Part shown: one piece after another, positions 52,451 through 53,350 of the stretch | Position numbering within the stretch: position 1 is the first letter of the stretch | Layout: the number at the start of each line of letters is the position of its first letter | From: a phage | Direction: 5' to 3' (one strand) | NCBI GenBank assembly: GCA_014686985.1 | Contig: GCA_014686985.1_3627.1 | DNA length: 64,000 nt | Notes under the pieces: model-generated | What the model was told of the DNA's origin: nothing | Database searches by the model: none | What the model saw: the letters and a program-made list of their open reading frames with translations, nothing else | Position numbers and translations under genes: made by a program

Positions 52451-52479
52451 TTGACAAACTTTGCTTAACAGTGTAATAT
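52451..52479 (+). promoter_or_regulatory. sigma70-like promoter of the tRNA array
   Basis: TTGACA 52451-52456, 17-nt spacer, TAATAT 52474-52479. Confidence 0.6.
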
Positions 52480-52537: not shown

Positions 52538-52612
52538 GCCCTGTTAGCTTAGTGGATAAAGCAGCGGCCTTCTAAGCCGTTGACACTGGTTCGAGTCCAG
52601 TACGGGGTGCCA
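52538..52612 (+). tRNA. tRNA-Arg(UCU): tRNA-Arg (anticodon UCU)
   Basis: hand-folded cloverleaf: acceptor GCCCTGT/ACGGGGT, D-arm GCTT...AAGC, anticodon loop CTTCTAA, T-arm ACTGG-TTCGAGT-CCAGT, CCA encoded. Confidence 0.8.
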
Positions 52613-52616
52613 AATT

Positions 52617-52703
52617 GGGGAGTTATCCCGTAGAGGTAGCGGTGTAGACTGTAAATCTATTGTCATTGCGACTCGGGTGGTTCGACTCCACCACTCCCCA
52701 CCA
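52617..52703 (+). tRNA. tRNA-Tyr(GUA): tRNA-Tyr (anticodon GUA), class II
   Basis: acceptor GGGGAGT/ACTCCCC, anticodon loop CTGTAAA, long variable arm, T-arm GGTGG-TTCGACT-CCACC, CCA encoded. Confidence 0.75.
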
Positions 52704-52817
52704 AATTTATATTTTTAGATGCATAAATAATACAGATAATGGCATTGATATTTATCGTCGTTTATACTAGTCACTAACTGCTCGAAAATCAGTGTCATTA
52801 TCAGTATAATTTATAAA

Positions 52818-52908
52818 GGAGGGTAGGGAGCAATGGTGCTCAAGCGGTCTTGAAAACCGTCCCGTTGAGGATGACTCGATGATGGTTCGATTCCATTACT
52901 CTCCGCCA
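52818..52908 (+). tRNA. tRNA-Ser(UGA): tRNA-Ser (anticodon UGA), class II
   Basis: acceptor GGAGGGT/ACTCTCC, anticodon stem GCGGT/ACCGT with loop CTTGAAA, long variable arm, T-loop TTCGATT, CCA encoded. Confidence 0.7.
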
Positions 52909-53006
52909 CATTGTTGACCTTGTAATTAAGCGAAAGCCGGAAGCAGAACCGGATTATCAAATGTTACAGTCGTCATCGCCGACTAGCAACATGGTCAACA
53001 TACTGA

Positions 53007-53105
53007 GCTAGGTAAGCCCTTTGGCAAGGGCGAGGATTTTTAATCCTGAAAATAGACGAGGTAGTCGTTGAATACATAGGTGGTTCGATTCCATCGCCTA
53101 GCACC
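53007..53105 (+). tRNA. atypical tRNA-like element (99 nt; anticodon arm irregular, about 30-nt variable region)
   Basis: intact acceptor GCTAGGT/GCCTAGC, D-arm GCCC...GGGC and T-arm GGTGG-TTCGATT-CCATC; AGGA-TTTTTAA-TCCT arm would give anticodon UUU (Lys) but with a mismatch and an over-long variable region. Confidence 0.45.
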
Positions 53106-53110
53106 TTTTT

Positions 53111-53186
53111 GCTGATGTAGCACAATCGGTAGTGCAATTGATTTGTAATCAATAGGTTGTAGGTTCAAGTCCTGCCATCAGCACCA
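53111..53186 (+). tRNA. tRNA-Thr(UGU): tRNA-Thr (anticodon UGU)
   Basis: acceptor GCTGATG/CATCAGC, D-arm GCAC...GTGC, anticodon stem ATTGA/TCAAT with loop TTTGTAA, T-loop TTCAAGT, CCA encoded. Confidence 0.8.
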
Positions 53187-53187
53187 A

Positions 53188-53263
53188 GGCCCTGTAGCTG
53201 GAAGGTTCAAGCAAGCGACTCATAATCGCCAGACGGTGGTTCAATTCCACCCAGGGCCACCAA
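53188..53263 (+). tRNA. tRNA-Met/Ile2(CAU): tRNA with anticodon CAU (Met or lysidine-modified Ile2)
   Basis: acceptor GGCCCTG/CAGGGCC, anticodon loop CTCATAA, T-arm GGTGG-TTCAATT-CCACC, CCA encoded. Confidence 0.75.
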
Positions 53264-53273
53264 ATAGTAAATA

Positions 53274-53350
53274 CTCCGCGTAGCTCAGCTTGGTAGAGCG
53301 CCTGATTTGGGATCAGGAGGTCGAGTGTTCGAATCACTCCGTGGAGACCA
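53274..53350 (+). tRNA. tRNA-Pro(UGG): tRNA-Pro (anticodon UGG)
   Basis: acceptor CTCCGCG/CGTGGAG, D-arm GCTC...GAGC, anticodon stem CCTGA/TCAGG with loop TTTGGGA, T-arm GAGTG-TTCGAAT-CACTC, CCA encoded. Confidence 0.8.

Follow-up and report, generated by a model that had tools for sequence, protein, structure and literature searches.

Small stable RNAs encoded within phage transfer RNA (tRNA) clusters have been known since species 1 and 2 of T4, and tRNA mimics as well as tRNAs with irregular cloverleaves have likewise been described. Phage tRNAs also take part in the evasion of host defence: tRNA-Lys, tRNA-Thr and tRNA-Asn of T5 neutralise PARIS (PMC11464382, PMC12409363), evasion of nucleases through anticodon-loop changes has been reported for phage tRNAs (PMC10264068), and competitive inhibition by viral tRNAs was raised as a possibility in the study of AriB (PMC12409363).

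The element described here occupies positions 53007-53105 of the window, that is, the whole 64-kb stretch of phage DNA that was analysed (contig GCA_014686985.1_3627.1), and lies inside an operon of tRNA genes. Comparison of its homologues shows a conserved gene for a predicted tRNA-shaped RNA, whose anticodon arm is non-canonical and whose core is both enlarged and conserved. As judged from sequence, the family appears to be new, having no homology to the T4 RNAs, YrlA, tRNA-Other, selenocysteine tRNA (tRNASec) or allo-tRNAs and lacking defining features of each of them. The existence and structure of this conserved family of tRNA-shaped RNAs are held with high confidence; for the copy in the window, here it is tentatively proposed that the RNA may serve as a mimic or decoy rather than as a decoder.

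Conservation and architecture of the element

With BLAST and pattern scans, 31 distinct homologues were obtained, each from a different genome, in five genera of the Vequintavirinae and in the Stephanstirmvirinae. The region around the element in the window is 99-100% identical by BLAST to Escherichia phage V5/rV5 and to many other Vequintavirus genomes, and on its sequence the window is an rV5-like coliphage (Vequintavirus). The other homologues are from Avunavirus (Av-05), Seunavirus (KE22, GAP31, SalP219, FENT2 and others), Mydovirus (Mydo, DP, NDO71 and P8734), Henunavirus (Hena1 and pEa_SNUABM_56), metagenomic contigs, and the Escherichia phages muut, inny and EC.P2 of the Stephanstirmvirinae, which were found with a pattern of the 5' half only. 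Copies of the Vequintavirinae type occur in ~190 GenBank phage records, and ~30 more records match most of a 261-nucleotide (nt) query in which a copy of the muut type is followed up to and including its neighbouring tRNA-Leu. The covariance model R1, derived from 29 of the sequences, gives family members 80-115 bits, with exactly one copy per genome and 102 bits for the element of the window, while all ordinary tRNAs in the ~1 Mb searched, including those of class II, score 28 bits or less. A host origin was looked for in 185,579 bacterial and archaeal genomes with a loose 5'-half pattern; of the loci, at least 100 in number, the first 100 gave chance matches, none above 28 bits with R1, a weak negative, as the last 20 loci were left out of the R1 screen.

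In a MAFFT alignment of 29 homologues, 99.8% of 595 cells in the acceptor, D, anticodon-like and T stems are paired and 12 of the 21 pairs have double-sided changes, values reached by none of 500 shuffles. The shuffle control takes no account of phylogeny, a point addressed by a control in which the partners were slid by 1-3 columns (pairing of 34-46%) and by the independent pair types, of which there are up to four per position. The acceptor, D and T stems are each paired in 100% of cells, with double-sided changes in five of the seven acceptor pairs, covariation in three of the four D-stem pairs and a change from U-A to C-G at pair 51:63 of the T stem; the 7/5 acceptor and T branch thus has all 12 pairs fully paired and six with double-sided changes. 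RNAalifold independently returned the same acceptor, D and T helices, together with the first three anticodon-like pairs. At the elbow, 18 sequences have the tertiary pair G19:C56 and 11 have U19:A56, with none unpaired or mixed, and the D loop TTTGGCAA goes with the T loop TTCGATT, the D loop TTTGTCAA with TTAGATT. Because positions 19 and 56 switch in concert, the L-shaped elbow itself is maintained.

A preliminary description of the window had listed a canonical acceptor stem, D arm and T arm around an irregular middle, and its stems and loops were confirmed base for base at 53007-53105(6), with the three stems further backed by the pairing and covariation among homologues; tRNA position numbers are taken here directly from the sequence. 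RNAfold predicts a cloverleaf with one extra hairpin (minimum free energy of -34.4 kcal/mol, z = -3.36 against dinucleotide shuffles). In a 1.2-kb search, the Rfam tRNA model (RF00005) matches 53007-53103 with 29.4 bits against a gathering score of 29, aligning end to end in the register of the preliminary description with the loop UUUUUAA and a 26-nt insertion in the variable region. The element was not listed in a gathering-threshold Rfam scan of the whole window, and apart from this borderline tRNA match no family of Rfam 15 matches it. ARAGORN calls exactly 53007-53105, as a 'tRNA-???' with a 4-base anticodon instead of a clean standard cloverleaf, and calls the element in none of the relatives. 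Its register (stem ATTTT/AAAAT, 8-nt loop, ATCC) was rejected, being paired in 39% of cells across the family, with no covariation.

The departures from a working tRNA are themselves conserved. A8, U14, U15 and A48 are invariant in the alignment, with A or G at position 9; the core pairs U8:A14 and R15:Y48 are therefore absent, the purine and pyrimidine identities being swapped relative to the canonical ones. Both RNAfold and RNAalifold add U14-A21 and U15-A20, which could give a 6-bp D stem with a 4-nt loop, although both pairs are invariant and show no covariation. In the anticodon-like arm, counted on the 31 distinct sequences, a G.G flank is present in 31 of 31 and layers 1-4 of the stem are paired throughout (two G.U in layer 1), with four types of Watson-Crick pair in layer 4. 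The fifth layer is Watson-Crick in 24 of 31 (U-A in 9, C-G in 15, C.A in 6 and G.A in 1), enclosing inner loops of 4-6 nt (TTTTA, TTATA, ATCAA, CNNCCA or TGAT) that are conserved neither in length nor in sequence. With the fifth pair open, the loop has 6, 7 or 8 nt depending on the lineage; a constant 7-nt loop is absent, and U33 usually so. The hairpin AGGA-TTTTTAA-TCCT with its mismatched flank, proposed in the preliminary description as an arm reading UUU, is present at 53032-48, and its register is preferred by the comparison over that of ARAGORN. However, the 7-nt loop UUUUUAA needs the U-A pair of the window to be open, leaving the G.G and 4 bp, whereas the comparison favours a fifth closing pair (U-A in the window, with a 5-nt loop), and the 'UUU anticodon' is therefore doubtful.

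The insertion of roughly 30 nt noted previously is a variable region of 31 nt in the window (53048-78), beyond the arms of class II, and of 31-41 nt across the family, with single-stranded linkers of 5-9 nt. To our knowledge, no working tRNA, those of class II included, has a variable region like it. The earlier view of a tRNA with an unusual insertion had the anatomy right; the insertion is the conserved signature of the whole family and not an accident of this genome. The 5' linker carries a GAAAA motif, G-AAAA followed by 1-3 nt, that is invariant in 31 of 31 sequences. The variable-arm hairpin is unrelated in sequence between lineages, its folding being retained at the same place, and in Av-05 it shows a compensatory change from A-T to G-C. 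The 3' linker has the form (R)AAUACAUA, with AAAUACGAAA in the Stephanstirmvirinae and an (A)AUAC-containing linker across the family. Since only sequences with ATACATAGG...GATTCC could be picked up by the metagenome scan and by one IMG/VR scan, the seeming invariance of this linker is biased; the bias is partly offset by the sequences derived from BLAST and from the 5'-half pattern, which exposed the AAAUACGAAA variant. ATACATA is found in every member of the Vequintavirinae, even in those obtained by BLAST or by the 5'-half pattern that did not require it.

At the 3' end, the window has A-CC-T at 53103-06, as first described. CCA is encoded after U73 in the Seuna-, Mydo- and Henunavirus members and is unencoded in the E. 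coli phage lineages, where the ends are A-CCU or A-CAU in the rV5 type (ACAU in L008), U/C-ACA in Av-05, and U-UCA or U-CCC in the muut type. The discriminator is A in the rV5 type only, and elsewhere U (C once). The two conserved linkers might pair with each other, or one of them with the loop of hairpin 1; this was rejected for the family as a whole, as ATGT/ACAT is present in the Henunavirus type only and is not conserved. A hammerhead-like core (CUGA...GAAA) was also rejected by eye: the spacing misfits and G12 is absent in many members.

Two observations on GenBank records concern the distribution. In the phi92-type Justusliebigvirus phages (phi92 FR775895, VivaForever and alia), the muut-type element region is matched over ~52% only, and the match is split in two; these phages may have lost part of the element or have something else in its place, and a 'tRNA-OTHER' is annotated at this site in VivaForever. 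Separately, ~19 'Campylobacter phage' records (host C. jejuni; MG065646, MG065647, MG065654 and others) are 99.5-100% identical here to rV5-like coliphages, which suggests that these phages were mislabelled or contaminating in the submission set.

Mimicry, decoding and other explanations

The tentative proposal is that the RNA acts as a tRNA mimic and not as a ribosomal adaptor. A tRNA-like regulatory RNA, another option of the preliminary description, would be compatible with the evidence. Following established tRNA biology, the element would be co-transcribed with the neighbouring tRNAs, cut by RNase P at the 5' end, trimmed at the 3' end, and completed by CCA repair where the gene lacks CCA. 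The acceptor/T stack alone suffices for RNase P, and CCA repair of this kind is known for several T4 tRNAs. A stable L-shaped RNA of ~100 nt would accumulate. With its body and enlarged core it would keep a tRNA-binding protein engaged, and its specificity would be tuned by the anticodon-like loop, which changes rapidly. The likeliest class of target would be host factors that recognise tRNAs by the anticodon arm, for example the defence nucleases that cleave tRNAs, with the RNA as a decoy or competitor. In the relatives with 15-24 tRNA genes, the array that holds the element also includes canonical tRNA-Lys(ttt), tRNA-Lys(ctt) and tRNA-Gly(tcc), so that supplying an anticodon is not the purpose of the family as a whole. 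Positions 30-40 of the hairpin in the window are GAUUUUUAAUC, one base apart from GACUUUUAAUC in E. coli tRNA-Lys (printed in PMC11464382). Additionally, U36-A-A-U-C/C41 of the window resembles the AriB site U36AAUC/A41, and C41 is the cleavage-reducing state (PMC12409363). A more specific form of the proposal, speculative and rather unlikely, would be a phage anti-defence RNA of a new class, namely an L-shaped tRNA decoy whose constant body and enlarged, A-rich core dock on a host effector that targets tRNAs; diversifying selection would act on the anticodon-like loop of the decoy so as to track the specificity of the effector, with a tRNA-Lys-like arm in the E. coli phages.

Variation in the loop bears on this proposal. 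The hairpin-1 loops CATCCA, CAGCCA, CCACCA, CCGCCA, CTTCCA and CCTCCA occur on identical or near-identical 109-nt bodies in Klebsiella, Enterobacter and related phages, and among the closest relatives most change falls in two adjacent loop positions, which would reflect either freedom from constraint or diversifying selection. A73 is found only alongside UUUUUAA, in the rV5 type, and A73 with UUU would make up the complete bacterial Lys identity set (PMC9976931). In Seunavirus and Mydovirus, U73, G1:C72, C2:G71 and NCC suggestively approach the Gly identity set minus G3:C70 (PMC9976931); against a Gly reading, G3:C70 is absent, the loop has 6 or 8 nt and these phages already carry a tRNA-Gly(tcc). 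As they represent single evolutionary events, these correlations of loop and discriminator are leads and not tests.

Several points weigh against a mimic. Neutral drift at unconstrained positions could explain the loop variation. The element keeps U39, the AriB-sensitive state, which counts against an anti-PARIS role, and the adjoining rV5 tRNA-Thr(UGU), the other prime AriB target, keeps a host-like AriB site, so that the array is not obviously tuned against PARIS. In rV5 and Av-05, opening of the loop can yield the 7-nt anticodon loop of the textbooks (U33, A37, A38), and both phages have small arrays without canonical tRNA-Lys or tRNA-Ile. Furthermore, in V18 (NC_041937; L004 724-843), a viable Vequintavirus, a deletion of ~400 bp has made a fusion in which the 5' half comes from tRNA-Tyr and the 3' half from the element, leaving no intact Tyr, Ser, spacer or element; the chimera has 34 bits with R1 and is not called by ARAGORN. 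As V18 is viable without the 5' half, at least one isolate can do without the element, if only under laboratory conditions.

Of the explanations other than mimicry, the main one for the window is that the element of the rV5 lineage is a working, if bizarre, tRNA-Lys(UUU), charged by lysyl-tRNA synthetase, reading AAA/AAG and perhaps serving, like tRNA-Lys of T5, as a replacement that AriB of PARIS and PrrC cut poorly, with a counterpart in Av-05 that may read AUA via UAU. This is somewhat unlikely, even though the end-to-end Rfam alignment, the label in tRNAscan-based GenBank annotations, the likeness to E. coli tRNA-Lys at positions 30-40 and the lack of any other tRNA-Lys in rV5, where relatives with a different element loop have one, all argue for it. 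To these are added the Lys identity set, completed by A73 in the rV5 lineage only (PMC9976931), and C41, which equals the T5 'Mut2' change that lowers AriB cleavage (PMC12409363). However, a 7-nt loop leaves the arm one stacking layer short, A8 replaces U8, CCA is unencoded, and in Av-05, the sister lineage, UAU goes with U73 or C73, outside the Ile identity set (PMC9976931); the 31-nt variable region with its long single-stranded linkers is beyond those of known working tRNAs (PMC7609411), and, as stated, supplying an anticodon does not explain the family as a whole. It is very unlikely that the element is a tRNA of the selenocysteine-like or suppressor type (tRNASec, selC* or allo-tRNA), with an anticodon that drifted in this lineage. 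Such a tRNA would fit the long variable arm, the possible 6-bp D stem with a 4-nt loop, the tRNA-sup(tca) annotation in Hena1, and the loop of Henunavirus and Stephanstirmvirinae, CAUCAAA as against CUUCAAA, which is the anticodon loop of tRNASec. U73 in most members is also like that of selC* tRNA-Cys (PMC5389517). Nevertheless, the acceptor/T branch covaries as 7/5 and not as 8/5, 8/4, 9/4 or 9/3, with A8 unable to pair with C65, the two extra D-stem pairs never vary, and the element scored no higher with the tRNA-Sec model of Rfam than with its tRNA model. UCA occurs only in the CAUCAAA-type loops, there with A33 instead of U33, and is lacking in the window, which has UUUUUAA with A73.

A decaying tRNA pseudogene, the functionless product of a rearranged array and an accidental insertion, would agree with the irregular anticodon arm, the missing CCA and U8, the disagreement of annotators over its identity and the partial deletion in V18; it is highly improbable in view of the compensatory changes in every stem and in the tertiary pair, and of the single copy kept in two subfamilies whose hosts span at least seven genera. 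The element body differs by 0-2 of 109 nt (98-100% identity) between phages whose 400-nt flanks differ by 5-45%, and because it is far more conserved than its flanks, a decaying pseudogene is strongly disfavoured; the degenerate pseudo-tRNA offered as one option in the preliminary description thus finds no support. [quoted passage not shown] The 59-aa minus-strand frame does overlap the element, with hypothetical proteins annotated there in some records, and the T-arm/acceptor region, with TTTTT after it, was marked as resembling a terminator. However, the substitutions follow base-pair compensation in five helices and not codon-wise conservation, the T run is missing in other genera, and the flanking tRNA genes already supply processing sites.

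Phages like rV5 are among the commonest therapeutic and biocontrol isolates for E. coli, Salmonella, Klebsiella, Cronobacter and Erwinia, and the conflicting annotation of a strongly constrained RNA gene would be resolved by defining the family through a covariance model. The family is also a natural experiment in how a tRNA scaffold can be altered while under selection, and it bears on the purpose of phage tRNA genes, given the widespread tRNA-cleaving defences (PrrC, PARIS, retron effectors, Schlafen, OLD and Cas12a3). If it were a true decoy, it would be the first RNA-only inhibitor of a tRNA-cleaving defence; if a true working tRNA-Lys, decoding would be structurally less restricted than is now known.

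The tRNA operon and its neighbouring sequences

Seven genes form a single plus-strand array at 52538..53350 (ARAGORN, with Rfam for the tRNAs), preceded by a sigma-70-like site at 52451-52479 that is annotated as the P(tRNA) promoter in the rV5 RefSeq record. The features of the array and of the element are listed below.

Coordinates of the tRNA array and of the parts of the element in the window
Feature	Position	Strand	Source or remark
tRNA-Arg(tct)	52538-612	+	ARAGORN
tRNA-Tyr(gta)	52617-703	+	ARAGORN
tRNA-Ser(tga)	52818-908	+	ARAGORN
Spacer, 98 nt, between tRNA-Ser and element	52909-53006		
Element, 'tRNA-???' with 4-base anticodon	53007-53105	+	ARAGORN
Acceptor stem, 5' strand, GCTAGGT	53007..53013	+	pairs with 53096-53102; T7.G66 wobble
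Positions 8-9 (A8, A9)	53014..53015	+	A8 in place of near-universal U8
D arm, GCCC/GGGC stem, loop TTTGGCAA	53016..53031	+	G18 = 53023, G19 = 53024
G19, elbow tertiary partner of C56 (53086)	53024	+	covariation
Anticodon-like hairpin	53032..53048	+	G.G flank (53032, 53048)
Anticodon-like stem, AGGAT/ATCCT	53033-37 / 53043-47	+	inner loop TTTTA at 53038-42
Variable region, 5' linker AAAATA	53049..53054	+	with G53048 makes the GAAAA motif
Variable-arm hairpin	53055..53069	+	G.T closing pair, ACGA/TCGT stem, GGTAG loop
Variable region, 3' linker GAATACATA	53070..53078	+	
T arm, GGTGG / TTCGATT / CCATC	53079..53095	+	C56 = 53086
Acceptor stem, 3' strand, GCCTAGC	53096..53102	+	
Discriminator A73, then C, C, T	53103..53106	+	CCA not fully encoded
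tRNA-Thr(tgt)	53111-186	+	ARAGORN
tRNA-Met(cat)	53188-262	+	ARAGORN
tRNA-Pro(tgg)	53274-350	+	ARAGORN

The rV5 genome paper reports six tRNAs and omits the element (PMC3606486), and its interval is left blank in the rV5 RefSeq record. Across the databases the family has at least seven labels: tRNA-Lys, tRNA-OTHER, tRNA-TERM, tRNA-???(atcc), tRNA-sup(tca), hypothetical protein and none. A literature search found no paper describing the element. The neighbouring ORFs, in which a clue to a protein partner was sought, all fall into PHROGs or Pfam families to which no function is assigned.

The 98-nt spacer upstream of the element had been said to contain hairpins, and it does fold (z = -2.85), but it is unrelated to the element. 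The spacer was rejected as part of the element, as it is absent in other genera and is a tRNA-Ser(UGA) cassette trailer common to P7, with a relic in lambda. Its ~70-nt core and tRNA-Ser(tga) are nearly identical to a segment of P7 (window 52818-53006; L051 1091-1266), in which ARAGORN finds the tRNA-Ser(tga) at NC_050152 72257-72343, unannotated in RefSeq, and the trailer core alone is present in lambda (L005 801-887) between orf-64 and S. The shared trailer sequence, TAATTAAGCGAA..CCGGAAGCAGAACCGGAT...CGTCATCGCCG, has no Rfam match. Judging from these matches, tRNA-Ser(tga) and its trailer look like a mobile cassette, and the spacer is the trailer of this horizontally exchanged cassette. A second sigma-70-like site (TCGAAA-17-TATAAT) is found at 52782-52810, in the 114-nt Tyr-Ser spacer just 5' of tRNA-Ser; the acquired Ser cassette may have carried along its own promoter.

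Other irregular tRNA genes were observed in the arrays of relatives. Mydovirus and Seunavirus arrays have tRNA genes with 2-base 'anticodons' (ga, gt) in ARAGORN, corresponding to shortened anticodon loops (L022:2598-2672, L029:5383-5457, L044:3313-3387, L033:4166-4240, L022:928-997, L034:1035-1104 and L028:192-261). One of these tRNAs lies immediately 5' of the element, in a slot that is occupied by Ile(gat) or Arg(gcg) or is empty in other phages; in GenBank the gene is given as tRNA-Ser, tRNA-Ile or tRNA-Arg. Henunavirus-like metagenomic relatives (L038:7862-7934 and L048:2791-2865) have a CTA-anticodon tRNA, 'Pyl' in ARAGORN, which could be an amber-suppressor tRNA. Av-05 (L002) has at 999-1083 an unannotated tRNA-like stretch, GGCGGTG...GAGAGGTTCGATTCCTCCACCGTCTACCA, with a T arm and encoded CCA, which is not called by ARAGORN and has only 14 bits with R1.

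Comparison with described tRNA-like RNAs

Like the family, rnaC and rnaD of T4 (species 1 and 2) are small stable RNAs with no assigned function inside a phage tRNA operon, and rnaC ends in a tRNA-type T arm (CCGGGTTCGAATCCCGG). However, their predicted folds have no recognisable D or anticodon arm, whereas the family keeps the whole cloverleaf, and R1 did not match rnaC or rnaD in the T4 cluster (L052:1409-1672), finding only the ordinary tRNAs.

Class II tRNAs, tRNASec, selC* tRNA-Cys and allo-tRNAs have, as does the family, a long extra arm between the anticodon and T arms (PMC7609411, PMC5389517). U73 of selC* (PMC5389517) is shared with most family members, a long D stem with a tetraloop is possible in the family, and tRNASec also lacks the canonical 8:14 and 15:48 pairs (PMC7609411, PMC5389517). 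In contrast to the tRNASec group, the family has the canonical 7/5 branch and an anticodon loop that is not a constant 7 nt; its extra arm is tethered by conserved single-stranded linkers of 5-9 nt, as compared with 1-2 nt in class II tRNAs and tRNASec.

YrlA and the tRNA-Other of Bacillus cereus are non-decoding RNAs with the acceptor, T and D architecture of tRNAs that are handled by tRNA enzymes (PMC4201824, PMC5389517). In YrlA, however, a Ro-binding helix replaces the anticodon arm, and the element is homologous neither to YrlA nor to tRNA-Other; the only Rfam YrlA match of the region (25 bits, with a gathering score of 69) lies over tRNA-Met/Pro and not over the element. Transfer-messenger RNA was rejected, as ARAGORN reports none and the 3:70 pair is U-A, not G3.U70.

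T5 tRNA-Lys(UUU) is a canonical 76-nt decoder that was shown to resist cleavage and to rescue infection, whereas the element is non-canonical. Position 39 bears the decisive change in T5 tRNA-Lys; the element retains U39 (PMC12409363). The two nevertheless share a Lys-like anticodon arm with a change at position 41, by the AriB cut site (PMC11464382, PMC12409363), and both are encoded together with a tRNA-Thr(UGU).

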